Shown: positions 4,355 through 35,613 of the stretch, one piece after another
How positions within the stretch are numbered: the stretch's first letter is position 1
Layout of the letters: each line of letters opens with the position of its first letter
Source: a virus
Strand: one strand, 5' to 3'
Length of the DNA: 35,613 bases
UHGV virus genome: UHGV-0122175
Notes under the pieces: generated by a model
The model's database searches: none
Told to the model about the DNA's origin: nothing
The model's input: the letters and a program-made list of their open reading frames with translations, nothing else
Position numbers and translations under genes: made by a program

Positions 4355-4377
4355 GGCTATTGGGCAAAGAGAGCGTA

Positions 4378-4581
4378 ATGGCAATTAAGCATTTTCCCGT
4401 CGTTCGCTTTACCTCCAGAGGACGCGAATACGAGGTCGACGAACGCCTGATTACCACTATCGACAAACACCGTTCAGAAAAGGATGCACATCACATCTAT
4501 CTCACTGACGGCACTTACTTCTGCGCCACGAATGTGGTGCGGGTGAACCTTATCCGACAGGCACAGGAGTCACGCAGATGA
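4378..4581 (+). CDS. Hypothetical early-region protein
   Basis: ATG at 4378 (MAIKHFPVVRF...) with AGAGAG upstream. Its stop overlaps the start of the next gene (ATGA). Confidence 0.5.
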   Translation: MAIKHFPVVRFTSRGREYEVDERLITTIDKHRSEKDAHHIYLTDGTYFCATNVVRVNLIRQAQESRR

Positions 4582-5119: not shown

Positions 5120-5140
5120 GAAACCAGAACATGCACACAC

Positions 5141-5441
5141 AAAAAAACCGCTTGCCATGCCGCAATCAGTCAGGTTACATTTCCGCTGCACCTCATAAAA
5201 CGGGTGCCGGGATTCTCAACCCGATACAGAGCAAAGCGCATAACCGCGCAAGCGGTTTTTTTGTGCGTACCGTATTGCCACGTCTTTTTCGCGTCAGAAT
5301 TATGGCGGGGCGTACGGGGCCGACTTCGGTCGGGCCGGATTCTTTGCTCTCCGGTGTTGAGAACCCTGTACGTCTCGCCACCCCGAGATTCTCAACTCTG
5401 GATGGTGAGTTATTTCTATCACCGAGCAAAGAGGCCACACC
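5141..5441. other. Structured non-coding region (candidate ncRNA or regulatory element)
   Basis: About 300 bp without a convincing ORF. It holds a 15-bp long-range inverted repeat (5141..5155 vs 5248..5262), an imperfect 28-nt inverted repeat (5208..5236 vs 5342..5366), a CCGAC-TTCG-GTCGG hairpin and three copies of GATTCTCAAC. Confidence 0.35.
5242..5262 (+). terminator. Candidate intrinsic terminator
   Basis: AACCGC-gcaa-GCGGTT stem followed by a run of seven T. It lies downstream of the 4820..5119 gene. Confidence 0.4.
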
Positions 5442-5672
5442 ATGGCAAACCGCAAACAGCACCGCGCATACGCTGCGCGTCGTCACATCCAGACTGAAAT
5501 CAACCGCAGACTTTTCCGCGCATTCCGCGTCGCGCAAATCATGCACATCAATATGCTGCATGAGCGCAGTCACGCACTATCGAACAGCTATTCCGCCTCT
5601 GTTTTCAGCTATCTGGCGGATGATCTGCGCGAGCTTCAGCAGCTCATCCAGCAGCAAAACAAACTCCATTAA
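5442..5672 (+). CDS. Hypothetical basic protein
   Basis: 76 aa, AAAGAGG ribosome-binding site, Arg-rich N-terminus (MANRKQHRAYAARRHIQTEINRR). Confidence 0.5.
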   Translation: MANRKQHRAYAARRHIQTEINRRLFRAFRVAQIMHINMLHERSHALSNSYSASVFSYLADDLRELQQLIQQQNKLH

Positions 5673-5744
5673 TTACTGTTCCGGGCCTTTCCTGCACCTT
5701 GCGGCGGGAGGCCTTCGCACATCTGTAACAAGAGGATTGCCGCA

Positions 5745-6110
5745 ATGATTCTCGCCAACGACTTTCTTGAATACCTGCTCAACACAGAACGTGATCTTGC
5801 CGCTCGCGTGCGTGATCGTTATGACATGTACCTGAAATCCCTGCCTGTACCGCAGCTCGCTGACGGAAAGATTGTTATTGATGGTCGCTACATGATTGAC
5901 AGCCATGAGGGAAATTACAGGCTTTACCGCATTGAAGGTGGCACCCCGTACGTTATTGGCATTTACCAGCGCCCATCCTCTGCAATCGTCGATGTGATTG
6001 CCGACAGCATCCGCATCACACATCGCCATGCCGACACAGAAGACACCGTGCTGGAAATTCAGCGGCTGGCTACAGTCTGCCGCGACACCCTGAATGGCAT
6101 GACGAAGTAA
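5745..6110 (+). CDS. Hypothetical protein upstream of A
   Basis: 121-aa ORF with AAGAGGA ribosome-binding site, immediately upstream of the replication gene. Confidence 0.6.
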   Translation: MILANDFLEYLLNTERDLAARVRDRYDMYLKSLPVPQLADGKIVIDGRYMIDSHEGNYRLYRIEGGTPYVIGIYQRPSSAIVDVIADSIRITHRHADTEDTVLEIQRLATVCRDTLNGMTK

Positions 6111-6116
6111 ATCACT

Positions 6117-8939
6117 ATGACGGCAGAGTACATCAGGGACTGGCAGCAACCGCGCCACGCAGTGGGGCGTGAAGGAACGGGGATCCCCGCTCCTGAATCC
6201 GCGCTTTCCTCCTGGCTGGATGCCTACCGGGTAGAGAACGAACGCCGCCAGGAAATGGCTGATGCGGCGTTCTCCACCACGCCGCTGGGCAACCTGATTA
6301 ATAAAAGCCTGGACGCACAGGAAAAACAGGACAAAACCATCACACTGGCAGGAGACGCCAGAAAACAGGCACGCGGCGCGGTGGATGAAGCCATGGCCTC
6401 GCTGCGCCTGCTGCCGTCCTATCTACGCGATCCGCTTATTCGCCACCTCTCCTTCCTGCGCAAAAAACAGGAAGCCGATCGCCGGAAAGGCGAAAAGAGC
6501 TGGCAGGCGGAGCGCTATGCACGCGGAACCCTGCGCAAAATATTCGAACGTCTGGATCGCACTGACGGACGCTGGCTGACACCGGGGTATCGCTCCCTTG
6601 CCGGACGCGAACACCTGGACGATTTGCTGTACCTGCCGCAGCTCAACAAACACCAGATACAGACGCTGGCCACCATGACGGCGGCGATGTTCAGCAGCAC
6701 CTTCGAAAAACTCTGCGATGGCTTTGGCGCGACTGATGGCGAACTGACCATGGATGTAACGCTGAAGGCGTATCAGATGCTGGCCCGCATGGCGTTACAC
6801 CTGCACGCCATGCCTCCACATTATGACGCACTGACAACAGACAAAGACCGGAGGAACGAACCGGACACAGAGCTGCTGCCGGGCGCAATCCTTCGCCTGA
6901 CCTGTGCGGAATGGTGGAAACGCAAACTGTGGCTGTTACGTTGCGAGTGGAGAGAAGAACAACTCCGCGCCGCCTGTCTGGTTTCCAGAAAAACATCGCC
7001 CTATCTGAGCCAGGACGCGTTAAGCGAGTTTCGCGCACAGCGCGAGAAAACACGCGATTTCCTGAAAAGTTTCATGCTGGAAAATGAAGACGGGTTCACG
7101 ATTGATCTTGAGACAGTGTATTACGCGGGAGTAAGTAACCCGGTTCACCGTAAGGCAGAAATGATGGCCACCATGAAGGGGCTGGAACTTCTGGCCGAAG
7201 CCCGTGGCGACAAAGCGGTGTTTCTGACTGTCACCTGCCCGTCAAAATACCACGCCACAACAGAGAACGGTCATCCGAATCCCAAATGGAACGGGGCCAC
7301 CATGCGCGACTCCAGCGATTACCTGGTTAACACGTTTTTTGCGGCGGTCCGCAAGAAACTGAACCGCGACGGCCTGCGCTGGTATGGCATCCGCACGGTG
7401 GAGCCTCACCATGACGGCACCGTGCACTGGCATATGATGGTCTTTGCTCATCCGGAAGAAATCGACACCATTGTGTCCCACACCCGCGATATTGCCATTC
7501 AGGAAGATCGTCACGAGCTGGGCGATGATATTACTCCGCGCTTTAAGGCGGAGTATGTCGACGGCTCAAAAGGCACGCCAACCAGCTACATCGCCACCTA
7601 CATCGGAAAAAACCTGGACAGCCGCGCCGTGGATGGCATCGACCCGAAAACGGGCAAGCCACGCGTTGACCACGAAACCGGAAAATCAATGGCCGAGAGC
7701 GTGGAGCGCGCCATCGGCTGGGCGCGCCTTCACCGGGTCCGCCAGTTCCAGTTCTTTGGCATCCCCTCCCGTCAGGTGTGGCGTGAACTGCGCCGCCTTG
7801 CCAGCCAGATGGCACGCAACCCGGAAGGCCCGCAACGGCTGAAGGATGACGCAATGGATGCAGTGCTCGCTGCCGCTGATGCCGGGTGTTTTGCCTCCTA
7901 CATTGAAAAACAGGGCGGCGTACTTGTTCCACGCAAAGACTACCTGATTCGCACCGCCTACGACCTCGCAGATGAGCTGAACGATTACGGCGAACAGAGC
8001 GTACAGATTTACGGGATCTGGTCACCACTCATCGGGGAGTCTTCCCGTGTGTGCACACATCCGGATAACTGGAAGCTGGTAAGACGTAAACCGGAAGCGG
8101 AAGACAGCGCCCGCGAAAATGGTTTTGACCTTCAGGGCGGCCCTGCCGCCCCTTGGACTCGTGGCAATAACTGTCCCCGTGTACAGGAAACGGACAACAA
8201 CGGGACAGAACAGCCGGAAGAACGGCCAGCACCGTGGCCGCAGCTCCCTGACGGCGTTGAAGTGAACGAATGGATGCGCTCACTGAAACGGCACGAACGC
8301 CGGGCGCTGATGCGTTCGCTTCGTGACAAACAGGCAAAAAACAGCCGTGATGAAATGCAGAGCTGGACACAGAGCCGCAAACAGCAGCGGCCTTTGCCTG
8401 ATAACCACGAACTACTCGCTAAAGAATGGCGGGAGTCTGCTGAATCTCTCGGCCTGCATATCGGTGAACAGCAGATGCAGCACCTGTTACGGGGCGGCAG
8501 TCTGTACGTTGACGGCAGCAACATTGCACCGCAGGGATTTGAAATTGTACGCAAACCGGATACCCGACCGGACAGCCGGATCACGCAGCTCTGGCAGCGC
8601 CTGAGCCGTAACCACGGCGTAAGCAGTACGGAGATCCGCCATAACCCGGTCGCCAGCTATCTGGAACAGCTGGGGACATCAGACCCCGAAGCCGCCGCAC
8701 GCCTGGCATCCACACTTCAGCAAGACCAGAACACCATGAAAACACCCGTTACCGTGCTTTCTGACATGCTGCGCGCCATCCGCGACGCAGAGCACGCACA
8801 GAGAATCAGTGAAACCACTGAACGCGCCCGCCGCAAAGCAGACCTGCTGCGGGGTGGCCTGACCAGTGGAAACAAAAAACAGACAGAAACGGGATTCACA
8901 AATCCCGTAAATGAGCAAAAAACGCGCCGCGATATATGA
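6117..8939 (+). CDS. A: Replication initiation protein A (rolling-circle, HUH-type nickase)
   Basis: 940-aa ORF at the end of the early operon. Contains a His-hydrophobic-His motif (TVHWHMMVFAH) and a paired-tyrosine motif (YIATYIGKN) characteristic of phiX174/P2 A-type initiators. Confidence 0.85.
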   Translation: MTAEYIRDWQQPRHAVGREGTGIPAPESALSSWLDAYRVENERRQEMADAAFSTTPLGNLINKSLDAQEKQDKTITLAGDARKQARGAVDEAMASLRLLPSYLRDPLIRHLSFLRKKQEADRRKGEKSWQAERYARGTLRKIFERLDRTDGRWLTPGYRSLAGREHLDDLLYLPQLNKHQIQTLATMTAAMFSSTFEKLCDGFGATDGELTMDVTLKAYQMLARMALHLHAMPPHYDALTTDKDRRNEPDTELLPGAILRLTCAEWWKRKLWLLRCEWREEQLRAACLVSRKTSPYLSQDALSEFRAQREKTRDFLKSFMLENEDGFTIDLETVYYAGVSNPVHRKAEMMATMKGLELLAEARGDKAVFLTVTCPSKYHATTENGHPNPKWNGATMRDSSDYLVNTFFAAVRKKLNRDGLRWYGIRTVEPHHDGTVHWHMMVFAHPEEIDTIVSHTRDIAIQEDRHELGDDITPRFKAEYVDGSKGTPTSYIATYIGKNLDSRAVDGIDPKTGKPRVDHETGKSMAESVERAIGWARLHRVRQFQFFGIPSRQVWRELRRLASQMARNPEGPQRLKDDAMDAVLAAADAGCFASYIEKQGGVLVPRKDYLIRTAYDLADELNDYGEQSVQIYGIWSPLIGESSRVCTHPDNWKLVRRKPEAEDSARENGFDLQGGPAAPWTRGNNCPRVQETDNNGTEQPEERPAPWPQLPDGVEVNEWMRSLKRHERRALMRSLRDKQAKNSRDEMQSWTQSRKQQRPLPDNHELLAKEWRESAESLGLHIGEQQMQHLLRGGSLYVDGSNIAPQGFEIVRKPDTRPDSRITQLWQRLSRNHGVSSTEIRHNPVASYLEQLGTSDPEAAARLASTLQQDQNTMKTPVTVLSDMLRAIRDAEHAQRISETTERARRKADLLRGGLTSGNKKQTETGFTNPVNEQKTRRDI
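8889..8908. repeat. 20-bp palindrome ACGGGATT-n4-AATCCCGT (copy 1, inside the 3' end of A)
   Basis: Perfect 8-bp inverted arms, read directly from the sequence. Confidence 0.6.
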
Positions 8940-8961
8940 AGCGCGCATAAAACAGGCAAAA

Positions 8962-8981
8962 ACGGGATTTCAGAATCCCGT
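8962..8981. repeat. 20-bp palindrome ACGGGATT-n4-AATCCCGT (copy 2, upstream of parM-like gene)
   Basis: Same arms as copy 1. Centres are 73 bp apart, about seven helical turns. Confidence 0.6.
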
Positions 8982-9015
8982 AAACGATTAATTAATCAAC
9001 ATAAGGAAAAGCGAC

Positions 9016-9975
9016 ATGAAAATTTGTATCGATGACGGCTCCACCAACATCAAGCTGGCATGGACTGAGAACGGCGAACGCCGCAACGCCATCAGCCCAA
9101 ACAGCTTCAAGTCGGAATGGTCTGCGCCGTTCGGTGGCACGCAGCCCGCGAACTACATGCTTGATGGCGTGCGCTATGGTTTTGATCCGGTCAGCGATCG
9201 CTTTGTCCAGACGACCGACACGCAATACCAGTACAGCGATGTGAATGTCATTGCCATTCATCACGCGCTGGTCAAATCAGGCATCACACCACAGGAAGTG
9301 GATGTGGTTGTCACCCTGCCACTGAGCGAATATTTCGACACAAACGCACAGCCGGACATGGCCAACATCAACCGCAAAAAAGCGAACGTTATGCGCCCGG
9401 TGGAGTACCAGAACGGCGAAGCATTCACTATCCGTAACGTGCGGGTTATGCCTGAATCCATTCCGGCTGGCTTTAAGGCACTGGCTGACATGAGTCCGTT
9501 TGAATCCCTGCTGATTGTGGATTTGGGCGGAACCACGCTGGATGTGGCAAAGGTTCAGGGGCAACTGGCAGGTATCAGCCAGGTGTTTTGCGATCCACAC
9601 GTAGGCGTTTCTCTGATGGCCGATGCCGTACTGTCGGTGATGGCCACTAACGGTATGCGCACCAGTCACCACATCGCCAATACCATTATCGAACATCGCC
9701 ATGATGAAGCCTGGTTGCGCCAGCACATCCACAATGACGCGCATTACGCCAGCCTGATGGCGGTTATTCGTGAAAAGGAAGAAACACTGAAACAACGAGT
9801 GATCCGCGCGCTGGCGGGGTTTTCGGGTTACGGGCGGGTGATGGTTGTCGGTGGCGGGGCGGAGATTGTGGCACCCGCTATCCGCGAAGCCTGCGGAGTT
9901 AATGCGACTTTCATCGCGGACGGGGTGCCACAGTTTGCTCTGGTTAATGGGCTGTACGCAATGGACAAGGAGTAA
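9016..9975 (+). CDS. parM: Actin-like segregation ATPase, ParM/StbA family
   Basis: 319 aa. N-terminus MKICIDDGSTNIKLAW closely matches the plasmid R1 ParM N-terminus as I recall it (MLVFIDDGSTNIKLQW). Also has the actin-fold phosphate motif IVDLGGTTLD and C-terminal VMVVGGGAE. Strong AAGGAA ribosome-binding site. Confidence 0.8.
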   Translation: MKICIDDGSTNIKLAWTENGERRNAISPNSFKSEWSAPFGGTQPANYMLDGVRYGFDPVSDRFVQTTDTQYQYSDVNVIAIHHALVKSGITPQEVDVVVTLPLSEYFDTNAQPDMANINRKKANVMRPVEYQNGEAFTIRNVRVMPESIPAGFKALADMSPFESLLIVDLGGTTLDVAKVQGQLAGISQVFCDPHVGVSLMADAVLSVMATNGMRTSHHIANTIIEHRHDEAWLRQHIHNDAHYASLMAVIREKEETLKQRVIRALAGFSGYGRVMVVGGGAEIVAPAIREACGVNATFIADGVPQFALVNGLYAMDKE

Positions 9976-23194: not shown

Positions 23195-25336
23195 ATGAGT
23201 ACCACAACACGAAAATTTAAAACCGTTATCACCGATACGGGTGCAAAAAAATTAGCTCAGGCAGCCGCGCCAGATGGTAAGCCTGTCCGCCTGACTCATA
23301 TGGCCGTGGGCGACGGTGGCGGCACGTTGCCCACACCAGACAGTAAGCAGACCCGTCTGGTGCATGAGGTGTGGCGACACACTGTTAATCGCGTCATCCT
23401 GGACGCAACACATCAGAACCGCATTATTGCGGAGCTGGTTATTCCTCCTGAAACGGGCGGATTCTGGATCCGGGAAATTGGTGTATTTGATGAGCACGGC
23501 GATTTAATCGCGGTGGGCAATACTGCCGAAAGTTACAAACCAACCGTTGCCGAAGGGTCCGGACGTGCACAAACATTTCGCACCATTCTGACCGTATCCA
23601 GCACTGCCACCGTGGCGCTTACCGTGGATAACACCATGGTGATGGCCACAGTGGATTACGTGGATGACAAACTGAAAGAGCATGAACAGTCACGACGTCA
23701 CCCGGATGCCTCGCTGACCGCAAAAGGCTTTGTTCAACTCAGTAGCGCCACTAACAGCGATTCTGAAACGCTGGCTGCAACGCCGAAAGCGGTTAAGGCC
23801 GCGTATGACCTGGCTAACGGAAAATATACCGCTCAGGACGCCACGACGGCACGAAAAGGGATAGTCCAGCTCAGCAGTGCAACCAACAGCACGTCTGAAA
23901 CGCTGGCAGCGACACCAAAAGCTGTTAAGGCGGTAATGGATGAAACGAACAAGAAAGCGCCCTTAAACAGTCCTGCGCTGACCGGAACACCAACAACACC
24001 AACTGCGCCAAAAGGTACTAACAATACTCAGATCGCAAGCACGGCTTATGTTATGGCTGCGATCGCTGCCCTCGTGGACTCGTCGCCTGACGCACTGAAT
24101 ACGCTGAACGAGCTGGCTGCGGCGTTGGGCAACGACCCGAATTTTGCGACCACCATGACTAACGCGCTTGCGGGTAAGCAACCGAAAGATGCCACCCTGA
24201 CGGCGCTGGCCGGGCTTGCTACTGCGGCAGACAAGTTTCCGTATTTTACGGGGAATGATGTCGCCAGCCTGGCAACCCTGACAAAAGTCGGGCGGGATAT
24301 TCTTGCGAAATCGACCGTTGCTGCCGTTATCGAATACCTCGGTTTACAGGAAACGGTAAACAGGGCTGGTAACGCCGTGCAAAAAAATGGCGATACTTTG
24401 TCCGGTGGGCTTACTTTTGAAAATGACTCAATCCTTGCCTGGATTCGAAATACTGACTGGGCGAAGATTGGATTTAAAAATGATGCCGATGGTGACACTG
24501 ATTCATACATGTGGTTTGAGACAGGCGACAACGGCAATGAATATTTCAAATGGAGAAGCAAACAAAGTACCACAACAAAAGACCTGATGAATCTTAAATG
24601 GGATGCTTTGTATGTTCTTGTCAATGCCATTGTAAATGGCGAAGTCATATCAAAATCAGCAAACGGCCTACGTATTGCTTATGGTAATTACGGATTCTTT
24701 ATTCGTAATGATGGTTCAAATACATACTTCATGTTGACAAACTCCGGTGACAACATGGGGACTTATAACGGATTAAGGCCATTATGGATTAATAACGCTA
24801 CTGGCGCTGTTTCGATGGGGCGTGGCCTTAATGTTTCAGGGGAGACACTTTCAGACCGTTTTGCTATTAACAGCAGTAATGGTATGTGGATTCAGATGCG
24901 CGATAACAACGCTATCTTTGGGAAAAATATAGTTAACACTGATAGCGCTCAGGCGTTACTTCGCCAGAATCACGCCGACCGAAAGTTCATGATAGGTGGA
25001 CTGGGGAACAAGCAATTTGGCATCTACATGATTAATAACTCAAGGACAGCCAATGGCACCGATGGTCAGGCGTACATGGACAATAACGGTAACTGGCTTT
25101 GCGGTGCGCAAATTATTCCCGGAAATTATGGCAATTTTGACTCACGCTATGTGAGAGATGTCCGACTTGGCACACGTGTTGTTCAATTGATGGCGCGTGG
25201 AGGGCGTTATGAAATAGCCGGACACGCACTTACCGGATTAAGGATTATTGGTGAAGTTGATGGCGATGATGAAGCTATCTTCAGGCCGATACAAAAATAC
25301 ATCAATGGCATATGGTATAACGTCGCACAGGTGTAA
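23195..25336 (+). CDS. H: Tail fibre protein H (constant N-terminal part plus variable C-terminal part Hv)
   Basis: 713 aa. The N-terminus matches the P2/Mu fibre constant domain. Duplicated STNS.SETLAATPKAVKA motifs. A gix-like crossover site lies inside the gene at 24327..24352. Confidence 0.85.
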   Translation: MSTTTRKFKTVITDTGAKKLAQAAAPDGKPVRLTHMAVGDGGGTLPTPDSKQTRLVHEVWRHTVNRVILDATHQNRIIAELVIPPETGGFWIREIGVFDEHGDLIAVGNTAESYKPTVAEGSGRAQTFRTILTVSSTATVALTVDNTMVMATVDYVDDKLKEHEQSRRHPDASLTAKGFVQLSSATNSDSETLAATPKAVKAAYDLANGKYTAQDATTARKGIVQLSSATNSTSETLAATPKAVKAVMDETNKKAPLNSPALTGTPTTPTAPKGTNNTQIASTAYVMAAIAALVDSSPDALNTLNELAAALGNDPNFATTMTNALAGKQPKDATLTALAGLATAADKFPYFTGNDVASLATLTKVGRDILAKSTVAAVIEYLGLQETVNRAGNAVQKNGDTLSGGLTFENDSILAWIRNTDWAKIGFKNDADGDTDSYMWFETGDNGNEYFKWRSKQSTTTKDLMNLKWDALYVLVNAIVNGEVISKSANGLRIAYGNYGFFIRNDGSNTYFMLTNSGDNMGTYNGLRPLWINNATGAVSMGRGLNVSGETLSDRFAINSSNGMWIQMRDNNAIFGKNIVNTDSAQALLRQNHADRKFMIGGLGNKQFGIYMINNSRTANGTDGQAYMDNNGNWLCGAQIIPGNYGNFDSRYVRDVRLGTRVVQLMARGGRYEIAGHALTGLRIIGEVDGDDEAIFRPIQKYINGIWYNVAQV
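24327..24352. repeat. gix/hix-like invertase crossover site (left, inside H)
   Basis: TTATCGAATACCTCGGTTTACAGGAA. Its extended 34-bp form (24327..24360) is an inverted repeat of 27369..27402 with two mismatches. Confidence 0.75.
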
Positions 25337-25339
25337 ATT

Positions 25340-25867
25340 ATGCAGCACTAAAAAAATATCAGGTCAGGAAACCCAAAGACAAAAGAGCAATACCAATTAA
25401 CAAAGAATTTTGACGTAATCTGGTTGTGGTCTGAAGACGGAAAAAACTGGTATGAGGAAGTGAAAAACTTTCAACCAGACACAATAAAGATTGTTTACGA
25501 TGAAAATAATATTATTGTCGCCATCACCAAAGATGCATCCACGCTTAACCCTGAAGGTTTTAGCGTCGTTGAGGTTCCCGATATTACAGCCAACCGCCGC
25601 GCTGATGATTCAGGAAAGTGGATGTTTAAGGATGGAGCTGTAGTTAAACGGATTTATACGGCAGACGAACAGCAACAACAAGCTGAATCACAAAAGGCCG
25701 CATTGCTTTCCGAAGCTGAATCAGTCATCCAGCCGCTGGAACGCGCTGTCAGGCTGAATATGGCAACAGACGAGGAACGCACACGACTGGAAGCATGGGA
25801 ACGCTACAGTGTTCTGGTCAGCCGTGTGGATACGGCAAATCCTGAATGGCCACAAAAGCCTGAATAA
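25340..25867 (+). CDS. G: Tail fibre assembly chaperone G (expressed orientation), with in-frame TAA at codon 4
   Basis: ATG 25340, CAG, CAC, then TAA (25349..25351). The frame reopens and matches G' residue for residue ([36 protein letters not shown]). The ORF track restarts at TTG 25424. Confidence 0.6.
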
Positions 25868-25895
25868 AAATTAAGGCCCGATAGCGGGCCTTGTC

Positions 25896-26429
25896 TCATT
25901 CAGGTTGTTCGGGAAACGTTACTGGCAGGCTGGAAGTGTCTGTAGATTCGACTTTCTGCGCAAAGAGCATCCACTCTGTTAATTTTTGTTTATTCTCGTC
26001 GGAAATGATGCCCAGCCGTAGCTGTGAGTCCCATAGCTGGGTTTTATCCCTGACGAGCTGTAGCAGGCTTTGCTTTTCATTTTCCGCCAGCTGCCTCTGC
26101 TCTTCCTCGGTATAAGTTCGCTTTACCACTACGCCATCTTTGAACATCCACTTACCCGAAATGTCAGCACGGCGATTTGCTGTAATATCAGGTAATTCAA
26201 CGACGCTTGCGCCTTCCGGATTAATTGCTGAAACATCCTTTTCAATACAAATAATAACGCCGTTATGGTCATAGACCATTTTCAAAGTGTCTGGCTGGAA
26301 ATTCTTTTGTTCCTCATACCAGTTTTTCCCATCCTCTGTATAAAGCCATTTGATGTTAAATTGTTTCGTTAGCTGGTATTGCTCTTTTGTTTTAGGGTTG
26401 CCAGCAGTAATATTTTTTAAGTGCATCAT
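25896..26429 (-). CDS. Alternative tail fibre assembly chaperone G'
   Basis: 177 aa, intact. N-terminus [40 protein letters not shown] parallels G. Confidence 0.8.
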   Translation of the reverse strand: MMHLKNITAGNPKTKEQYQLTKQFNIKWLYTEDGKNWYEEQKNFQPDTLKMVYDHNGVIICIEKDVSAINPEGASVVELPDITANRRADISGKWMFKDGVVVKRTYTEEEQRQLAENEKQSLLQLVRDKTQLWDSQLRLGIISDENKQKLTEWMLFAQKVESTDTSSLPVTFPEQPE

Positions 26430-26431
26430 AA

Positions 26432-27376
26432 TTAAATACTCCCCGCGTTATACCACGTTCCATTAATGCAATACTGAATTGGCCTTGCCTGAGTTGTATC
26501 AATTAATTCATCACGGTTTCCGTTAACTGAACCCGTAACGACATAACCTGACCTGTCAGACCAGCCGGGGCCATTCCATGTCTGAACAGATGACAGACCG
26601 CCAAGGCGAATACCTGTAATAAACCTTGAGTTACATTCTGCCTGCGTGTATGCACCAACATCTCCCGCAGAGGGTTTGCGGGTCGTGGTGTAAAACTCTG
26701 ACCAGTCAGCCTCAAATCCATAACCATCACGCGCTGAACGATAAAAAATACCGCCGTTCCTGTAATTCACGCGGAACTGTACAGCAGGGCAGCTCCCCGT
26801 ATTCATATTGAAGTGGAGGATTAATGTCGATGTGCCACCAATGTTTGCGTTATAGACCCCGCTATTCCAGTTCCAGCCAACAGCTTTATCATTTCCGACA
26901 GTGCTTCCTGTTTGTCCTAAAGCAAATGCAGGTTGTTGATTTTTCGTGTTGTAGTCTCGTCGCCAGCCAGGAGCATAAGCATCACCATGATTAATATAAG
27001 TGAATTGAGCGTTAGTAATTCCGCCACCGCTGGACGTGCTCGGCGTGGTAACGCGTATGGTCATTGCGCTGCGAGTGCCAATAACTTCCACCACAGCACC
27101 TGCAAGACAAATATTTCCGCAACCTGTATCTGTAATGACCTTATTATTTGCATAAGCCCATGAGCCTTTGCACATCCAGTAAGGATGGTTAAATGCTCCC
27201 TGACTCTCCAGCCACGAAATAAATTGCGCGGTTGTCCAGACCTGACTATCGCCACCAATATTCAGCCATGCGCTATATGCGCGGCAGGCCCCAATATTTT
27301 TGGTGAAGGTATCTTTTCCCGGAATATCTGCGCCGTTCTGGTTTTTCTGTAATGCGCCAGAAGCCTGATTTACCGT
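26432..27376 (-). CDS. Alternative tail-fibre C-terminal segment H'v (no promoter or start of its own in this orientation)
   Basis: The minus-strand frame is open from the right gix site down to 26432. It begins LGLQETVNQASGALQKN..., parallel to H residues EYLGLQETVNRAGNAVQKN. Confidence 0.7.
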   Translation of the reverse strand, partial: TVNQASGALQKNQNGADIPGKDTFTKNIGACRAYSAWLNIGGDSQVWTTAQFISWLESQGAFNHPYWMCKGSWAYANNKVITDTGCGNICLAGAVVEVIGTRSAMTIRVTTPSTSSGGGITNAQFTYINHGDAYAPGWRRDYNTKNQQPAFALGQTGSTVGNDKAVGWNWNSGVYNANIGGTSTLILHFNMNTGSCPAVQFRVNYRNGGIFYRSARDGYGFEADWSEFYTTTRKPSAGDVGAYTQAECNSRFITGIRLGGLSSVQTWNGPGWSDRSGYVVTGSVNGNRDELIDTTQARPIQYCINGTWYNAGSI

Positions 27377-27402
27377 TTCCTGTAAACCGAGGTTTTAGAT
27401 AA
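27377..27402. repeat. gix/hix-like invertase crossover site (right)
   Basis: TTCCTGTAAACCGAGGTTTTAGATAA. Near-identical to the Mu gixL sequence as I recall it (TTCCTGTAAACCGAGGTTTTGGATAA). Confidence 0.75.
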
Positions 27403-27456
27403 TGGCCGTTTCCGGCCTGCATGGCATGATTTGCGCTTTTGGACGGGAGATTCAGC

Positions 27457-28047
27457 GTGCTGATTGGCTATGTAAGGGTATCAACAAATGACCAGAATAC
27501 AGACCTGCAACGAAACGCTCTTGTTTGTGCCGGATGTGAACAAATATTTGAAGATAAATTAAGCGGGACAAAGACAGACCGACCGGGATTAAAACGCGCT
27601 TTAAAGCGCCTTCAAAAAGGTGACACGCTGGTTGTCTGGAAACTGGATCGCCTCGGGCGAAGCATGAAACATCTGATTTCTCTCGTCGGGGAACTACGGG
27701 AGCGAGGGATTAATTTTCGCAGTCTGACCGATAGCATAGATACATCTTCTCCAATGGGGCGTTTTTTCTTCCACGTGATGGGTGCCCTGGCTGAAATGGA
27801 ACGTGAATTAATTGTTGAACGTACACTGGCCGGACTGGCGGCAGCGCGCGCACGGGGGCGCACAGGCGGACGTCGACCGAAGCTGACAAAAGAACAGCAT
27901 GAGCAAATAGCAAGGCTGATTAAAAACGGTCACGACAGAAAACAACTGGCAATAATTTACAGCATTGGTATATCGACAATTTATCGTTACCACCCCGCAG
28001 GAGAATCAAGTGGAACAATTGAGAAGAGTAAACAAAATAACCGCTAA
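27457..28047 (+). CDS. Serine DNA invertase (Gin/Pin/Cin/Hin family)
   Basis: GTG start with GGGAGA ribosome-binding site. N-terminus LIGYVRVSTNDQNTDLQRNAL with the catalytic Ser, and a C-terminal HTH. Sits just outside the invertible segment. Confidence 0.9.
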   Translation: MLIGYVRVSTNDQNTDLQRNALVCAGCEQIFEDKLSGTKTDRPGLKRALKRLQKGDTLVVWKLDRLGRSMKHLISLVGELRERGINFRSLTDSIDTSSPMGRFFFHVMGALAEMERELIVERTLAGLAAARARGRTGGRRPKLTKEQHEQIARLIKNGHDRKQLAIIYSIGISTIYRYHPAGESSGTIEKSKQNNR

Positions 28048-28068
28048 TCTGGCCATTAGCGGTTTTTG
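28040..28068. terminator. Bidirectional intrinsic terminator between the convergent invertase and U genes
   Basis: ACCGCTAAT-ctggcc-ATTAGCGGT stem followed by TTTTT. The invertase stop codon lies inside the stem. Confidence 0.6.
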
Positions 28069-28075: not shown

Positions 28076-28570
28076 TCAGAACAGCCCTTTAACGGAGCTG
28101 GCCGCGCTGTTAAGGGATGATGTGACCTTATCTTTGAAGCCGGACAGCATATCGCTGAACGATGAGGATTGCAGGCGCTCCCGCAAATCCTCATCACAGC
28201 GTTCAAGGGTCAGTGAAAATTCTATTTTTTTCGCCTTACCGTAGCGATCAAATTCAGAGCGGGTCGTATTCGTTCCGGTCAGGACATACATGCCGTAAAT
28301 CTGCCCGACACCATCAATCAGAGGCCAGGGGCGTCCTGTATATGCCTGCGTGGTCAGCAGCGACAGCGACACTTCGCCACCTGTAATTTCAGGATAAAGC
28401 ACACCGGAAAGCACGATGCGATCATCACCTGCACCGATATACTGCCAGCTTGCTGAACGGTTAACGCGTTCATTTTTCACATGCCGCCAGCTTTTGTTTT
28501 GCTGTAACTGCTGATGCGGCAGCGTGCGCAGCTCAAAAACAAACATGCCGTAGATCATCATCATGACCAT
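28076..28570 (-). CDS. U: Tail protein U-like
   Basis: 164 aa, close to P2 U in size, immediately downstream of the tape measure gene on the minus strand. Confidence 0.7.
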   Translation of the reverse strand: MVMMMIYGMFVFELRTLPHQQLQQNKSWRHVKNERVNRSASWQYIGAGDDRIVLSGVLYPEITGGEVSLSLLTTQAYTGRPWPLIDGVGQIYGMYVLTGTNTTRSEFDRYGKAKKIEFSLTLERCDEDLRERLQSSSFSDMLSGFKDKVTSSLNSAASSVKGLF

Positions 28571-28576: not shown

Positions 28577-31420
28577 TCAATCTTTATCGTAAAAACTGCC
28601 ACGTCCGGCACGGGCGCGCCGTTCCATTTCTGCCCTGACCATTTCACCGACCAGTTTCGCCAGTTCGCGGGGATTCTGTGTAACGACGTTATGCAGATGA
28701 ACATGAATTTCACCGCCAAATCCTGAGGCAACAGGCTCCCGGTTACGGGAAGTTACAGGAACTGATGCCACTGGAGATCGTATGGCCTCCGCCACCGGGC
28801 GGGAGCTGGCCGCAACAACAGGGACCAGCGCCGGAGGCAGCGGAGCCGGGACCACGGGTGTGATATTAATTGCGGGGGCAGGCTTACTGACCTGCGCAAT
28901 CTTCCGCTCCTGCCACTCCCCACGAACAGCAAGTGCGCGGGGCAGGTTCTTAAAGACAATATCGCCGGGGCCAATGCGTTTTTTCGTCTCATCAACCAGC
29001 TTACCTGTGTTATCAGCAATTTTGCTGAGTCTGCGCAGCGTACCAGTATTGCTGTCTGTGAGCGGTTTATTGTCTTTGGGGTTATCACCTCCGGTGCCAT
29101 TGCCATTTTCTACAGGCTTCGGCGGATTGATTTTCGCCAGGTCCCCCTGAAGCAAGGCAACCTTGTCCTGAAGAATGGCCGCACGCTGTGCGTCTTCGAT
29201 TTTCTTTCTCGCCCTTTCCGCTTCATCCGGAAGAACACCGAGTTTTTCAAGTATCCACGCCAGCGTATCCAGCAACATTTTTGCAGGCGTCAGAACAAGC
29301 TGTAACGCGCCACCAAGAACGTTACCGAATATCTCGCCAGCACTGGTACATTTATCCAGCGTTTCCTTGCTGGACTCCATCGGTGACAGCAGCGATTTAA
29401 ACCAGTTAAACACCTGGCTGATCCCGCTTCCGATTGCGTCAAAAACAGGGCCAAACCGTTCAAAGGTTTCACGCAACGGGTTCAGCCTTTCCATAATCCC
29501 GTTGAACACCCCGGCATAAAACGCCTTAATGGGTTCCCAGTATTTCCAGATGAGAACCGCCGCAGCCACAAACGCAGCGGCAATCAATCCGACCGGACTG
29601 AACAGCGCCCCGATAGCGCCTCCCAGTAAAGAAACGGAACCCGTCACCATTCCCCATAGTGCTGGCAGGACCCTGACAGCATTCATTGATCCGGTCAGGA
29701 GAGAAAAACCAAGACGCAGTTTTGCCAGCGGGCCAGCAAGCACACCAATAGCCAGCGACAACGAGCCAACCGTTGCAGTCATTGCCAGCAACGCACCGCC
29801 TGCTATCAGTAGCTGGCGCGTCAGTGCCGGATGGGCCTGCGCCAGCGCCGTCACCCTTGATACCACCCGCGTGAGCCACTGCGTGACAGAACGCAGCGGA
29901 CCGTCAATCAGATCTGCAATGCGGATGCGCAACCCTTCCCATGCACTGCCGAGTGATTTCAGATCGCCGTCAAGGTTGTTGGCCATAACCTTTGCTGTGC
30001 GTTCAGCCTCACCGCGCGCGCCTTCAAGTTCTTTTCTCAGTTTGGGTAAGGAACCGTCACCCGCTGCATCAACGAGCGCCATAAACGATGTGAAAGCCTC
30101 TTCTCCGGCAATGTCCTTAAAGAACGATACCCGGTCAACTTCCCCGTATTTGCGGGTGGCTTTATAAAGGTCGGCCAGCACATCCTCCATCGGGCGCATT
30201 TTGCCGTTCGCGTCAGAGACTGCCACACCAAGCTCTTTCAGAGCTTCTGCCGCCGCCTTTGGCGGTGATGCCAGACGAGCCAGGCTGGCACGCATTGCCG
30301 TCCCGGCATCACTCCCTCTGATACCCATATTCGCCAGCACGCCCGCCATCGCTGCGGCCTGCTCCAGCGATATCCCCAGCTTGCCCGCCACCGGACCTGC
30401 ATATTTCATGGTTTCGCCCAGTGCGCGAAGGTCAGTGTTGGTACGGGTAAACGCTGCGGTGAGCGTGTCGCCAACCCGGTCCATCTGGTCAGCAGAAAGG
30501 CCGAACTGCGTCAGGATATTTGAGCCAATATCCGCCGTCTCGCCGAGATCCATGCCGCCAGCCGTTGCCATGCTCAGCACGCCCGGAAGCGCAGCCTGAA
30601 TGGCCTGCGGTGTGAAGCCAGCCATTGCAAGAAATGCCTGCCCACTGGCGGCATCGCCTGCGGTGAACTGCGTTTCAGAGCCAAGTTTTAACGCCTGCTC
30701 ACGCAGCGCCTTAAACTGCGGGCTGTTTTTGTCGATTCGCGTCAGTGCCTGAACGCGGGACATCTCTTTCCCGAACCCGATCGCAGGCTGCAAAAAACGC
30801 CCGGCAGCATAGCCGCCAGCCGCTGCCGCACCAATTGCCAGCGCACCACCTGTTTTCAGTTTTCCCGCTGTTTCCTGCGCGCGCGAATACCGCTCACGCG
30901 CCCGCGTTACACGCGCAAGCGCCTGCCGTTCGCGTTCAAGCTGGTTGTTGTACTGTTCGGTGCGTCTGATGGCCTGCTGGATGGTGTTATCGCTGCCTGT
31001 CAGGGAAATGCCGTGGCGTTTCAGCTCTCCGCCAAGCTCCCGCATTTTCTGAATTTCCCGTGTACGCGATTCATTCAGGCGTTCAAGCCGGGTGCTTAAC
31101 TGCTGCATCAGCTTTTGTTGTTTTTCGCTGAGCACTGTACCCGTGCGTTGTAACTGATTAAGGGCGTTAAGCTGGCGTCGTGCTTTCACGATGCCCGCAT
31201 CCGCTTTACTGACAGCGTCGCGGGCGCGCTCAAATGATCGCGCCTGACGCTCGAGATTTTTGATCGCCCCCTGCGTTCGCTGGATGGAGTCACCAAACTG
31301 CCCCATCAGGCGGCGGGCGTTTTCGGCAGGTCGGGTCAGCCTGTCAACGGCGCTGAAAGCGACCCGGATATCAAGAGTCTTCATTGTCTGCATTCCCGCT
31401 GCGAAGTGCCGCCCGCTCAC
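28577..31420 (-). CDS. T: Tail tape measure protein (P2 T-like)
   Basis: 947 aa with a coiled-coil N-terminal third and a Gly/Ala-rich hydrophobic core. Located after the E/E' chaperone pair. Confidence 0.85.
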   Translation of the reverse strand: MSGRHFAAGMQTMKTLDIRVAFSAVDRLTRPAENARRLMGQFGDSIQRTQGAIKNLERQARSFERARDAVSKADAGIVKARRQLNALNQLQRTGTVLSEKQQKLMQQLSTRLERLNESRTREIQKMRELGGELKRHGISLTGSDNTIQQAIRRTEQYNNQLERERQALARVTRARERYSRAQETAGKLKTGGALAIGAAAAGGYAAGRFLQPAIGFGKEMSRVQALTRIDKNSPQFKALREQALKLGSETQFTAGDAASGQAFLAMAGFTPQAIQAALPGVLSMATAGGMDLGETADIGSNILTQFGLSADQMDRVGDTLTAAFTRTNTDLRALGETMKYAGPVAGKLGISLEQAAAMAGVLANMGIRGSDAGTAMRASLARLASPPKAAAEALKELGVAVSDANGKMRPMEDVLADLYKATRKYGEVDRVSFFKDIAGEEAFTSFMALVDAAGDGSLPKLRKELEGARGEAERTAKVMANNLDGDLKSLGSAWEGLRIRIADLIDGPLRSVTQWLTRVVSRVTALAQAHPALTRQLLIAGGALLAMTATVGSLSLAIGVLAGPLAKLRLGFSLLTGSMNAVRVLPALWGMVTGSVSLLGGAIGALFSPVGLIAAAFVAAAVLIWKYWEPIKAFYAGVFNGIMERLNPLRETFERFGPVFDAIGSGISQVFNWFKSLLSPMESSKETLDKCTSAGEIFGNVLGGALQLVLTPAKMLLDTLAWILEKLGVLPDEAERARKKIEDAQRAAILQDKVALLQGDLAKINPPKPVENGNGTGGDNPKDNKPLTDSNTGTLRRLSKIADNTGKLVDETKKRIGPGDIVFKNLPRALAVRGEWQERKIAQVSKPAPAINITPVVPAPLPPALVPVVAASSRPVAEAIRSPVASVPVTSRNREPVASGFGGEIHVHLHNVVTQNPRELAKLVGEMVRAEMERRARAGRGSFYDKD

Positions 31421-31964: not shown

Positions 31965-32477
31965 TCAGCCAAGCCCAAGCGCGGAACGGATACGGTCAGG
32001 CACAATGTCCTTGCCGTCCTTCCGGTAGATGTGGTTCAACAGGTCGATTTCCCACAGCGGGCGATCGTTAACGCTCAGCTTGTAGTAGGTGTTTTTGACA
32101 GCGTAAGTGTGTGATGTGGCTTCGCCCTGTTTGGCTTCCCCCATATCAATTTCCGTCACACGCCCGCGCATCTCGATTTCATACAGATCGCTTTCTGCAT
32201 CGGTGTAGTATTCACCCGCAAAACGCAGCAGCGTGCCGTCAATCGTACCGCCATATTTAAGGAACAGCGCACGAACAGCTCCCCCCATGACAAAACTCGC
32301 ATCAAGCGCGGAGTCGTCCAGACCGAGATCAATACTTACCGCCCCCATCATGCCACCACCACGATAGCTGTCGGTTTTGCGCGTCAGTTTGGGCGGCGTG
32401 ACGGATGTCACTTTACCCACTTCGTTTTCACCATCCACAAACAACGTAAAAAAGCGAAGATGTTTTGGTACAGCCAT
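31965..32477 (-). CDS. FII: Tail tube protein (P2 FII-like)
   Basis: 170 aa, close to P2 FII in size, immediately downstream of the sheath gene. Confidence 0.85.
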   Translation of the reverse strand: MAVPKHLRFFTLFVDGENEVGKVTSVTPPKLTRKTDSYRGGGMMGAVSIDLGLDDSALDASFVMGGAVRALFLKYGGTIDGTLLRFAGEYYTDAESDLYEIEMRGRVTEIDMGEAKQGEATSHTYAVKNTYYKLSVNDRPLWEIDLLNHIYRKDGKDIVPDRIRSALGLG

Positions 32478-33661
32478 CAGGCACCTCCCAGCACCGCAAA
32501 TGCGGGACCAAAGAATTCATCAGTAAACGTCTGGTAAAGCTCCATGTCTTCCAGCGGGGGAACAGGCGTATATTTGTAGCGAATACGCACACGTCCCTGA
32601 CGTAAATTCGTGGTGCCGTTATCCACCACGTCATACCAGCACTCCGCACCAATCAGTTTCCCGGCAGTAACCAGCGAATCCAGTTTTGCCCTGATGGCAC
32701 TGATAACATCCTTCACGTTCGCAGGCGTCAGTGGACTGTCGATGGTTTCAAACTGCGCTTCCGCAATTGAATCAGCCAGCACCTGTGCGGTTCGGGTATA
32801 CACCTCAAAGATGTAGGCGTTCGTTTCCGGTGTGCGGTTGCCCCAGAAGCGGAACCCGTTGCGACGAATAATGGTCGTGATTTCTTTGTTGTTGAGGCTG
32901 TTGGCATCGCTGTCTTCGGCCTGCAATGACCAGAACACATGCCTGGACATTCCCAGCACATTTTTAACCGGAACGTTGGACAGCGATTTGTGCCAGCCCT
33001 GCTCATGGTCAATGTACGCACGAAGGCCGCACGCATAAGCAGGCGCGGGGAACGTTTCGTTTTTGCCACTTTTCGGGTTGTAGGCGATGAAGTCCGGCCA
33101 TAAGAGCATCACCTCACGTTCGTTGAATTTCTGGCGGTAGGTAATCGCCTCAGCCATCGTGTTACAGCCGTGACATGAGGCATACACAAACGCGCGCAGT
33201 TTACCTGCAATCACGCACAGGGATTTTGTTACAGCCTCCGTGTCCAGCTCCGGCGCGGCCAGAATACGCGGACGGTATCCGATGCTTTCATCCTGCTCTG
33301 CAACAAGCAGCGCATACATCCCCGTATAGCTGCCGTCAGATTCAGAACCACCGATAACCAGTTGATCCTGCGTTTTTCCGTCTTCTTCTTTGTGTTCAGC
33401 CACGCGAACGACGATCACCTTTGTGCTCACCTGGTCTGCGATGGCCTTAAGCGCACGGTAAAGCGTCCCCGTTGTTCCGCATTTTCCCAGCACGTCATTG
33501 ACGCGGGTCAGCAGTGTGGGCTTGTTCAGCGGGAACAGCTCCGCGTCCGCATCATCCGCCGTTGCCACGATACCGATAACACTGGAATCAACATCATTAA
33601 TCGCTGTTACCAGGTCGGTACTTTCCGTAACACGGGCACCATGAAAACGAGTTTCACTCAT
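32477..33661 (-). CDS. FI: Contractile tail sheath protein (P2 FI-like)
   Basis: 394 aa, close to P2 FI in size, first gene of the minus-strand tail operon. Confidence 0.9.
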   Translation of the reverse strand: MSETRFHGARVTESTDLVTAINDVDSSVIGIVATADDADAELFPLNKPTLLTRVNDVLGKCGTTGTLYRALKAIADQVSTKVIVVRVAEHKEEDGKTQDQLVIGGSESDGSYTGMYALLVAEQDESIGYRPRILAAPELDTEAVTKSLCVIAGKLRAFVYASCHGCNTMAEAITYRQKFNEREVMLLWPDFIAYNPKSGKNETFPAPAYACGLRAYIDHEQGWHKSLSNVPVKNVLGMSRHVFWSLQAEDSDANSLNNKEITTIIRRNGFRFWGNRTPETNAYIFEVYTRTAQVLADSIAEAQFETIDSPLTPANVKDVISAIRAKLDSLVTAGKLIGAECWYDVVDNGTTNLRQGRVRIRYKYTPVPPLEDMELYQTFTDEFFGPAFAVLGGA

Positions 33662-33818
33662 AGCTTCAGCCCCTTGTATCCGTTAAATGATTCGGCAACA
33701 ATCATCACCCACCACGCGCGTAATCTCACCCCTGCGCCGTTCTCCCGCCACGGCGACAACAAAAAGCAGTAACCCCCTCCGCACGCACATGCGACCATGC
33801 CGCACAGGGAGGGAACAG
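33662..33818. promoter_or_regulatory. Divergent promoter region between the sheath operon and D
   Basis: 157-bp gap between divergently transcribed late genes. Promoter elements not resolved by eye. Confidence 0.35.
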
Positions 33819-34928
33819 ATGACCGACACCACCATGCAATTGCTCAGTCAGGGCACAGACCCAGTAAAAATGCCGGATTTTGATATTCTCGCGGAGGGTA
33901 AAACGCTGTCAGGCGTGGCAGAGCGCCTGATGAGCCTGTCACTGACCGACAACCGGGGATTTGAGGCGGACCAGCTCACCATCACGCTGGATGATGCCGA
34001 TGGCCAGTTGCAGCTACCGCCACGGGGCGCGCGTCTGACGGTTCTCATTGGCTGGAAAGGAGAGCCGCTGACAGAAAAAGGCACTTACATTGTTGATGAA
34101 ATCGCTCACGAAGGACCGCCGGACAGGCTGACTGTTTCAGCCAGAAGCGCAGATTTTCGGGATGAATTTAACGTTAAACGTGAGGTGTCCTGGCATGATG
34201 TGACCGTTGAGCGTGTGGTATCCGCCATCGCTCATCGGTATGGTCTGAAACCGCAAATCAGCGAAATGCTGATGGATATCGAAATCGACCACGCCGACCA
34301 GACCGAAGAAAGCGACATGTCCTTCCTTACGCGCATGGCGGAAATGCTGGGCGCAATCACCACGGTAAAAAGCGGCAATCTGTTATTCATCATGCCAGGT
34401 GGTGGCGTGAACGCACAGGGCCAGCCGTTGCCCTCGTTCGCCATTACACGCAGCAGCGGCGATCGCCATCAGTTCCGCATTGCTGACCGCGAGGCGTATA
34501 CGGGGGTACGCGCCTACTGGCTTGATCTTAATTACGGGAAAAAGAAAAAAGTCAGCGTGAAACGCCGTAAACCGCCAAAACCCAAAAAGGAGAAAAGCAG
34601 CAGCCGTGAAGGTGATTATATGGAAGGCGCGGAAGGCAATGTGTTTGTGTTACGCAAGACTTATCAGAACGAGCAGGCAGCAAGACGCGCAGCGGCGGCA
34701 AAGTGGCAGCAACTACAACGCGGAGCCGCATCATTCTCCATCACGCTGGCGCGTGGACGTGCAGAACTCTACCCCGAAATGCATGGCACGGTAACAGGAT
34801 TTAAAAGCGAGATTGATAATCAGGACTGGATCATTGCAAAAGCCGAGCACACCATTGATAACAGCGGCTTTACCACGCAGCTTGAGCTTGAGGCAAAAAT
34901 CCCGGAATGGATAGCGGAAACAGAGTGA
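33819..34928 (+). CDS. D: Late control gene D protein (tail/baseplate hub, gpD family)
   Basis: ATG at 33819 with GGGAGGG ribosome-binding site gives 369 aa. Size and position next to ogr match P2 D. Confidence 0.8.
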   Translation: MTDTTMQLLSQGTDPVKMPDFDILAEGKTLSGVAERLMSLSLTDNRGFEADQLTITLDDADGQLQLPPRGARLTVLIGWKGEPLTEKGTYIVDEIAHEGPPDRLTVSARSADFRDEFNVKREVSWHDVTVERVVSAIAHRYGLKPQISEMLMDIEIDHADQTEESDMSFLTRMAEMLGAITTVKSGNLLFIMPGGGVNAQGQPLPSFAITRSSGDRHQFRIADREAYTGVRAYWLDLNYGKKKKVSVKRRKPPKPKKEKSSSREGDYMEGAEGNVFVLRKTYQNEQAARRAAAAKWQQLQRGAASFSITLARGRAELYPEMHGTVTGFKSEIDNQDWIIAKAEHTIDNSGFTTQLELEAKIPEWIAETE

Positions 34929-34970
34929 GCAACTTAGAATAGCGGCAGCACCACGTTAAGGGAGGTCGCT

Positions 34971-35231
34971 ATGTTCCGTTGTCCGCTTTGTGGCGCATCT
35001 GCCCGTATCCGCACCAGTCGTCCGGAAAATGATTCAAACACCGTGCGGCAAAAGTATTACCAGTGTAACAATCTGGAATGCGGCGTATGCTTCTCAACAC
35101 TGGAAGCTTTCCATAAATTCACATCGAAACACGCCTCCGGCGTTCACTCATCAGAAGGTATCCCGTGGCATGAGCTGCCAGCTTCACACAGGGGAAACAA
35201 TCAGATGAGTTTGCCTTTACCTCAGAATTAA
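34971..35231 (+). CDS. ogr: Late gene transcriptional activator Ogr (zinc finger, Ogr/Delta family)
   Basis: 86 aa with the C4 zinc motif CPLCG...(n22)...CNNLECG. Sits at the end of the late region as in P2. Confidence 0.85.
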   Translation: MFRCPLCGASARIRTSRPENDSNTVRQKYYQCNNLECGVCFSTLEAFHKFTSKHASGVHSSEGIPWHELPASHRGNNQMSLPLPQN

Positions 35232-35422
35232 CAGGCAGAATTGCCGGAGTAACAAAAAAGCGATAGATTACGCGCGGGTGCCTTTCGGCTGATGGTCGGA
35301 GGGAATACCCGAAGGCCAGATGTGGAAAGGCCCCGGAAAACATTTCTGTTTAACCGAGGCCCTAACATATCTACCTTAAGCAAGTGATAGGTTAGCGCCT
35401 CTCCAACAAAGGAGCAAGCGCT

Positions 35423-35563
35423 ATGTCGCAAAAATCGCTTATGGCCATCACGTTCTGCGTGACGGTAATCCTCATCATCTGGATGCTGCACGGTTCGCTG
35501 TGTGAAATACGGATGAGCTTCTGGGGAGCGGAGTTTGCGGCGTTCTTACAGTGTAAGCAGTAA
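35423..35563 (+). CDS. hok: Hok/Gef-family type I toxin (small membrane peptide)
   Basis: 46-aa ORF MSQKSLMAITFCVTVILIIWMLHGSLCEIRMSFWGAEFAAFLQCKQ. One TM helix followed by the SLCEI...AAFL.C signature shared with HokA/Hok (from memory). GGAG ribosome-binding site. A perfect 8-bp hairpin lies just 3' at 35571..35592. Confidence 0.65.
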   Translation: MSQKSLMAITFCVTVILIIWMLHGSLCEIRMSFWGAEFAAFLQCKQ

Positions 35564-35613
35564 GGAAACCGCGACGGGGGAGCAATCCCCCGTCAATCGG
35601 TTGCCAGGGTAAA

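Follow-up and report, generated by a model that had tools for sequence, protein, structure and literature searches.

The G segment of phage Mu is the textbook example of a host-range switch that works by DNA inversion. In this system two alternative pairs of fibre tip and chaperone genes, Sv-U and U'-Sv', lie between inverted 26-bp gix sites, the invertase gene is found directly to the right, and crossover takes place inside the fibre open reading frame (ORF). Mu genetics has established that the two orientations of the segment give different host ranges. Here we analyse a locus of the same design in UHGV virus genome UHGV-0122175, a viral DNA of 35,613 nucleotides whose full length is referred to below as the window, and conclude, with a probability of roughly 90%, that the region at 24327-27402 is a Gin/gix-type (Din-family) invertible host-range cassette. 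Judged by its sequence, the cassette is essentially the Mu G segment joined to the P2 H-type tail fibre gene of a P88-like (Xuanwuvirus, Peduoviridae) prophage of Escherichia coli. The switch itself is already known: the Mu system and the annotation of the module in the GenBank record of P88 are both long established, and our finding is therefore correct but not new. Individual to the present genome are only details of its mosaic structure and an early stop in one of the two chaperone genes, U.

Several related systems provide the background for this comparison. The C segment of phages P1 and P7 (Cin/cix) is a homologous invertible fibre cassette with 94% nucleotide identity over 24345-27360 of the window, and the C segments of P1, P7 and D6 together match at 92-94%. 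The similarity to P1 and P7 is limited to the invertible segment and ends short of the invertase gene; in these phages cin lies on the opposite side of the C segment and has its own enhancer. Salmonella Hin/hix shares the recombinase subfamily and the Fis/enhancer logic, with an enhancer in the 5' end of the invertase gene and conserved Fis-contact residues, but Hin flips a promoter rather than a coding-sequence fusion and the central dinucleotide of hix is different. Alternative fibre C-termini are flipped by Din-family invertases in the P segment of e14 (Pin), in Fels-2 (Fin) and in P2-like prophage loci of enteropathogenic E. coli (EPEC) E2348/69. For the EPEC prophages it has been shown experimentally that both orientations coexist at read level (PMC4272514). 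However, the EPEC loci have pix-type repeats (AAACCTTGGTTTGGGAGAA) and segments of 1.9-2.0 kb, whereas the window has gix sites and a G cassette, and on these grounds we rejected them as representatives of the same cassette.

The closest described relative is Escherichia phage P88 (KP063541/NC_026014). In a megablast search of phage records, the module at 23195-28050 was 95% identical to P88 over 95% of its length, and in the P88 record a pair of tail-fibre genes, a pair of assembly genes and a DNA invertase are annotated, arranged as in the window. P88 is an inducible, plaque-forming phage with identical architecture (PMC5285337), and it shares genome type, module and location of the module with the related prophages of UTI89, NU14 and KSC9 and with Citrobacter phage phiSM. 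Inversion is nowhere mentioned in the P88 paper (PMC5285337), and the searchable literature on P88 and Xuanwuvirus contains no discussion of the switch. The two genomes are not the same throughout. P88 has gix sites identical to those of the window, but it lacks the early stop in U, has one fibre repeat more, differs from the window in the middle of Sv, where the window is Mu-like, and carries a different type of integrase and immunity end (1-2830 of the window).

The gix sites and the alternative fibre tips

The cassette and the fibre gene that runs into it comprise the following features (aa, amino acids):

23195-25336, + strand: H, tail fibre gene (P2 H-like), ORF of 713 aa
23195-24338, + strand: constant part of H, residues 1-381, outside the invertible segment; promoter-proximal 5' end for either tip
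24327-24352, + strand: gixL, left 26-bp site, TTATCGAATACCTCGGTTTACAGGAA; codon Leu382 of H contains the central TC (24339-24340)
24339-25336, + strand: Sv, presently expressed variable C-terminus, of Mu S type with the last ~70 aa a P88-type tip; Pfam Gp34_trimer
25340-25867, + strand: U (equivalent of P2 G), assembly chaperone of the present orientation; Pfam Caudo_TAP, E=1e-37
25873-25892, no strand assigned: terminator-like GC-rich hairpin at mid-segment, between the convergent chaperone genes; stem of 8 bp, 6 of them GC pairs, with a T run after it
25896-26429, - strand: U', alternative chaperone, predicted to be expressed only after inversion; 177 aa, Caudo_TAP, E=2e-35
26432-27390, - strand: Sv', alternative fibre C-terminus, promoterless and without a start codon of its own; frame open from 27390 to the stop at 26432
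27402-27377, - strand: gixR, right 26-bp site, TTATCTAAAACCTCGGTTTACAGGAA; central dinucleotide at 27389-27390

Taken together, the segment and 389 nt at the start of the invertase gene have 92% nucleotide identity to Mu (blastn, 3535 nt, 24327-27845), and by megablast Mu and D108 match at 94-95%. The left end of the similarity to Mu falls exactly on the first base of gixL, at 24327, and the right end, at 27845, lies inside the invertase gene. At the protein level Sv' is 98.7% and U' 97.2% identical to the Mu counterparts. Upstream of gixL there is no similarity to Mu except in the fibre repeats, and the constant part, which in Mu is Sc (~170 aa), is here a shaft of 381 aa of P2 H type. Its N-terminus contains the Pfam tail-collar fibre N-terminal domain (PF12571) and fibre repeats (PF03406).

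The two sites, which are imperfect palindromes, lie within the arms (24323-24387 and 27342-27406) of an inverted repeat of 65 nt that is 78% complementary, and they enclose 3.05 kb with the two alternative pairs of fibre tip and chaperone. A pattern search of the whole 35.6-kb window that allowed up to 3 mismatches found only these two gix sites, where 0.00 were expected from 100 shuffles. An earlier note on this DNA, written from the sequence without database searches, had described 26-bp inverted boundary sites that closely resemble gix and suggested aligning them with Mu gix. The alignment agrees with that description. In the Mu genome record gixL and gixR both read TTATCCAAAACCTCGGTTTACAGGAA, from which the window gixL differs at 2 nt and gixR at 1 nt. 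All of these differences are in the outer half-site; in the central TC and in the inner half-sites the window sites agree fully with Mu gix. The gixL variant of the present genome, TTATCGAATACC, is also found in P88, KSC9, HNSQ2209 and NU14.

The same note had placed the crossover within the coding sequence, with the peptide LGLQETVN kept on both sides, and had expected inversion to exchange the tip of the fibre. Both statements hold, as crossover falls in codon 382 of H, LGLQETVN is encoded at both junctions and the two fusion frames are open. As found, H encodes 713 aa; when the segment is flipped in silico, an uninterrupted fibre of 700 aa is obtained, followed by the second chaperone, and 700 aa is also the annotated length of the fibre in the KSC9 prophage. 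The note was also right in its layout of a second fibre C-terminus and chaperone in inverted order, but to call these a copy is not accurate. They are alternatives, the tips Sv and Sv' being 25% and the U and U' proteins 57% identical to each other. Inside the segment, promoter-like sites do not exceed the chance expectation, which fits read-through expression from the fixed 5' end of the fibre gene. Of the features that define a Gin/gix switch, the following are found at this locus: the inverted sites, a constant fibre part outside them, paired promoterless cargo between them and, in the prophage family as described below, crossover at the centres of the sites.

The two orientations would be expected to confer different host ranges, given the low identity between the tips and what is known from Mu genetics. 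Mutagenesis of the P88 tip points in the same direction (PMC5285337), although which hosts each tip of the present phage recognises can be suggested here only by analogy.

The variable part is itself a mosaic. Sv is 91-99% identical to Mu up to ~25126, but identity falls to 56-59% over 25127-25326, where the sequence is identical to P88. A profile of identity in 100-nt steps shows a single replaced block at 25127-25430, which spans the C-terminal ~70 aa of Sv together with the 5' part of U and in which the window, unlike Mu, is of P88 type. The host-range region of P88 that was defined by mutagenesis overlaps this block (PMC5285337). As a separate observation on the shaft, the repeat region of H (at 23830-23840, with repeats at 23704-23799 and 23836-23931) has two copies of a 44-aa 'phage tail fibre repeat' against three in P88 and HNSQ2209, and the fibre shaft is 44 aa shorter as a result.

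The invertase and inversion in related prophages

Just beyond gixR are found:

27457-28047, + strand: serine DNA invertase of Gin type, 196 aa; begins with a GTG that aligns with the start of Mu gin and has the ribosome-binding site GGGAG upstream
27490-27552, no strand assigned: putative Fis-bound recombinational enhancer (sis), predicted, inside the 5' end of the invertase gene
28039-28064, no strand assigned: bidirectional terminator-like hairpin (inverted repeat) between the invertase gene and the convergent gpU gene

The invertase carries a Pfam Resolvase domain (PF00239, E=1.3e-50) and a helix-turn-helix (HTH) domain (HTH_7, PF02796, E=5e-13), and matches the sequences of crystallised Gin (chains 4m6f_A and 3uj3_X) with E ~1e-100. 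Residues 1-113 are those of Gin except for the K39/R39 difference, and R7, Ser9 and the DRLGR motif (D64-R65-L-G-R68) are present. The HTH domain matches the sequence of the Hin DNA-binding domain (chain 1hcr_A, E=1e-11), and its recognition helix, STIYRY, resembles the STLYRY of Hin. Overall the protein is 80.6% identical to Mu Gin and 96.4% identical to the P88 invertase. The Gin-like invertase that the earlier note had seen just outside the segment is thus present, and its ORF is intact with all catalytic residues in place.

The contacts with Fis and the enhancer that are specific to invertases involve Q151, R154 and L155 of Hin together with the basic helix-B residues 47, 48 and 51 (PMC3798978). 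These residues are kept in the window protein, as EQIARL in helix 1 of the DNA-binding domain (Q, R and L) and as LKRALK in helix B of the catalytic domain (KR..K). On alignment, therefore, catalytic, HTH and Fis-contact features all assign the protein to the Din family (Gin/Cin/Hin/Pin) of serine invertases. With regard to the enhancer, nucleotides 1-170 of the invertase gene, the stretch of gin in which the Mu enhancer lies, agree with Mu gin at 167 of 170 positions (3 differences). A scored scan for the Fis motif over 27403-27760 gave many weak matches, with several pairs 44-52 bp apart, and one candidate pair of Fis-like 15-mers lies 48 bp apart with the proximal member 107.5 bp from the centre of gixR; the motif is too degenerate to single this pair out.

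The invertase is also a mosaic, in which a Gin-identical catalytic domain is combined with a diverged HTH domain. The protein diverges from Gin from about codon 115, and the nucleotide similarity to Mu and D108 stops at 27812-27845 (codons 119-130), close to where the catalytic domain meets the DNA-binding domain, with the DNA-binding domain diverged from that of Mu Gin after codon ~130.

By analogy with the known systems, the switch would work as follows. The fibre promoter and codons 1-381 remain outside the segment, and the invertase, encoded just beyond the right site, would bind the two 26-bp gix sites as dimers. Together with host Fis bound to the putative enhancer in the 5' part of its own gene, it would cut both sites at the central TC, and rotation of one pair of half-sites by 180 degrees would invert the 3.05 kb between them. 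As the DNA stands, the constant part continues into Sv, with chaperone U next in line; inversion would join the constant part to Sv' instead, with U' behind it. The virions of a lysogen population would then carry one of two receptor-binding tips, a form of host-range hedging.

Evidence for inversion comes from related prophages. We searched 5426 complete E. coli genomes with a 700-nt query across gixL, either as found or with the right half flipped in silico, and scored a junction as contiguous at a coverage of at least 80%. The junction as found was contiguous in 355/5426 genomes and the flipped junction in 126/5426. The prophage of KSC9, which has the same architecture, aligns collinearly with the window in its flipped form (97% over 7.4 kb); compared with the window as found, its breakpoints are at 24323-24364 and 27362-27406, inside the repeats. 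The most informative comparison is that of UTI89 with NU14, which are near-isogenic and carry the same prophage, with an invertase that matches that of the window at 184/200 aligned positions (92%). The flanks are 100% identical (3690 + 2649 nt), but the internal 2712 nt are inverted, at 99.7% identity. Moreover, a polymorphism of the inner half-site, GGTTTACAGGAA against GGTTTACGAGAA (ACAGGAA against ACGAGAA), has swapped partners between the two prophages, whereas the outer half-sites have stayed in place, as is predicted for crossover at the central TC dinucleotide. The 9-kb locus of three further UTI89 assemblies matched the reference byte for byte, so that it is the comparison of UTI89 with NU14 that is informative. 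These alignments indicate that inversion occurs between these sites in this prophage family.

Within the inverted 2.7 kb (2625-5336 in their own coordinates) UTI89 and NU14 differ by 8 mismatches, against none in 6.3 kb of flanking sequence. Such a contrast points to gene conversion with a second fibre cassette of the same genome, or else to noise in the assembly of a population of mixed orientation.

Conceptually these results add nothing to what is known of such switches, and their value is practical. The orientation seen in any single assembly is arbitrary, and hence a prediction of host range from the annotated fibre alone is incomplete. Sv', which has no promoter, ought not to be annotated as a 247-aa gene in its own right, and the UTI89/NU14 pair offers a clean natural example of crossover at the central dinucleotide.

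Alternative readings and the early stop in U

A feature that does not appear in the earlier note is a stop near the start of the presently expressed chaperone gene:

25349-25351, + strand: TAA stop at codon 4 of U; T->A at 25350 (TTA->TAA, L4*)

Codon 4 is TTA in P88, Mu and E. coli WEM25, and in a megablast search with 91 nt around the position the closest E. coli alleles have a single mismatch, at the stop codon. The 91-nt query had no exact match in the 5426 E. coli genomes, and a 38-mer with the TAA allele had none among the species representatives of GTDB (one genome per species); the allele is therefore either private or an error. The stop lies beside an A-run and may be a sequencing error, or it may be a real nonsense mutation confined to this genome, and it is worth checking against reads. 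A TTG at codon 29 of U would keep the whole Pfam Caudo_TAP domain, although it has no obvious ribosome-binding site.

If the stop is real and effective, the switch in the present genome might have a single working arm and act as an on/off toggle of infectivity rather than as a choice between two host ranges. In the virions released by lysogens of the orientation found here, the fibres would be unassembled or defective, and infectious phage would come only from cells that had flipped to Sv'/U'. We regard such a one-armed switch as unlikely, though as deserving some weight; the alternatives to it are a sequencing error at the stop or bypass of the stop by a start at the TTG of codon 29.

A number of points weigh against a working two-state switch in this genome. 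The stop lies in the U gene of the expressed orientation, so that fibres made in one of the two states may be defective in this genome. The gixL site has two substitutions in the outer half-site relative to Mu, yet the identical site flanks both orientations in relatives. The DNA-binding domain of the invertase is only ~57% identical to that of Gin (by a hand count on the alignment). The enhancer, and with it any dependence on Fis, is proposed from identity to Mu. Finally, flipping has been shown in relatives, and it is from these that we infer both that the present genome flips and any rate at which it may do so.

The strongest alternative that takes up these points is that the locus is a relic, a Mu-type switch that no longer inverts here or in which only one state is productive, the prophage being effectively locked or decaying. 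The private TAA in U, set in a sequence otherwise identical to its closest alleles over 91 nt, would agree with this, as would a gixL that is 2 positions off Mu gix and an H that is one fibre repeat short of P88. However, the invertase ORF is intact with all its catalytic residues, the sites are identical to those in relatives that are found in both orientations, and none of Sv, Sv' and U' is interrupted, their identity to Mu being 87-99%; in addition, the stop itself could be a sequencing error beside the A-run, and a start at the TTG of codon 29 would still encode a full Caudo_TAP domain. We therefore consider a locked or decaying switch improbable, and a Gin/gix cassette able to invert remains the preferred reading.

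At first sight the boundaries of the similarity to Mu could also suggest that a fragment of a Mu-like or P1-like prophage has been inserted, or mis-assembled, beside a P2-like fibre gene and that the fusion is fortuitous, as the similarity begins abruptly at 24327 and ends at 27845 and as P1, P7 and D6 match the same segment. We rejected this explanation, which has very little to recommend it, on the grounds that the frame is continuous across gixL in both orientations and that the identical architecture recurs in P88, in Citrobacter phage phiSM and in hundreds of E. coli prophages; nor are any other Mu or P1 genes found on the flanks. An equally implausible explanation is a shufflon of the kind seen in Min of p15B, in R64 or in the four-state locus of EPEC, with at least three crossover sites, in place of a two-state switch: a sister prophage, JNE082640, has three reverse-strand tip fragments at the same position, and a P2-like prophage of EPEC shows four-state inversion (PMC4272514), but the window has only two gix-like sites at up to 3 mismatches and only two pairs of tip and chaperone, and the shufflon was rejected.

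Genome position and mosaic context

The genes that surround the module or mark the ends of the prophage are:

50-1042: integrase
28076-28570, - strand: gpU, end of the inverted FI-FII-E-T-U operon
28577-31420, - strand: tape measure
31965-32477, - strand: FII (tube)
32477-33661, - strand: FI (sheath)
33687-34928, + strand: gpD

The window is a complete P88-like prophage, from integrase to gpD, and its ends are 99% identical to E. coli prophages. The fibre N-terminus and the flanking genes are of P2 type, in keeping with the P2-like fibre module that the earlier note had recognised. That note had also placed the cassette and invertase at the Z/fun hotspot of P2, a position for variable cargo between G (fibre assembly) and FI (sheath) in which invertases and fibre swaps are described for P2-like phages (preprint 10.1101/2024.10.15.618418). 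On the upstream side this is correct, as the cassette directly follows the homologues of H and G, but on the downstream side the neighbour is the 3' end of the gpU gene and not FI. The tail operon is on the minus strand and the invertase abuts its gpU end, and the equivalence to Z/fun is for this reason only a loose one. This neighbourhood also differs from that of Mu, in which com/mom genes follow the invertase; none are found here.

The inverted position of the tail operon relative to the order in P2 (28076-33661, with FI, FII, E/E', tape measure and gpU) is shared with P88. At the other end of the window, positions 1-2830, which contain the integrase, cox and immunity genes, have no match to P88 or phiSM but are 96-99.5% identical to vB_EcoM-705R2 and JNE082640; the window is therefore a mosaic in which P88-like structural genes are joined to a different lysogeny module. 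In the early region two Rfam families score above their gathering thresholds on the + strand, the Hfq-binding RNA isrK at 5188-5262 (63 bits) and C4 antisense RNA at 5298-5385 (78.5 bits), and these matches point to an antisense immunity element of P1/P7 type. To the right of gpD, at 34928-35613, the matching regions of E. coli prophages are annotated with genes for an ogr/Delta-like zinc-finger protein and a toxin of the Hok/Gef family.

The E. coli prophage JNE082640, which is 99.5% identical to the integrase end of the window, carries a different cassette at the position equivalent to ~23195-28047 (its own 4509-9303). This cassette has a shorter fibre gene, extra tail-protein genes, the three reverse-strand tail-protein (tip) fragments mentioned above and a recombinase, and it looks like a multi-tip inversion system.

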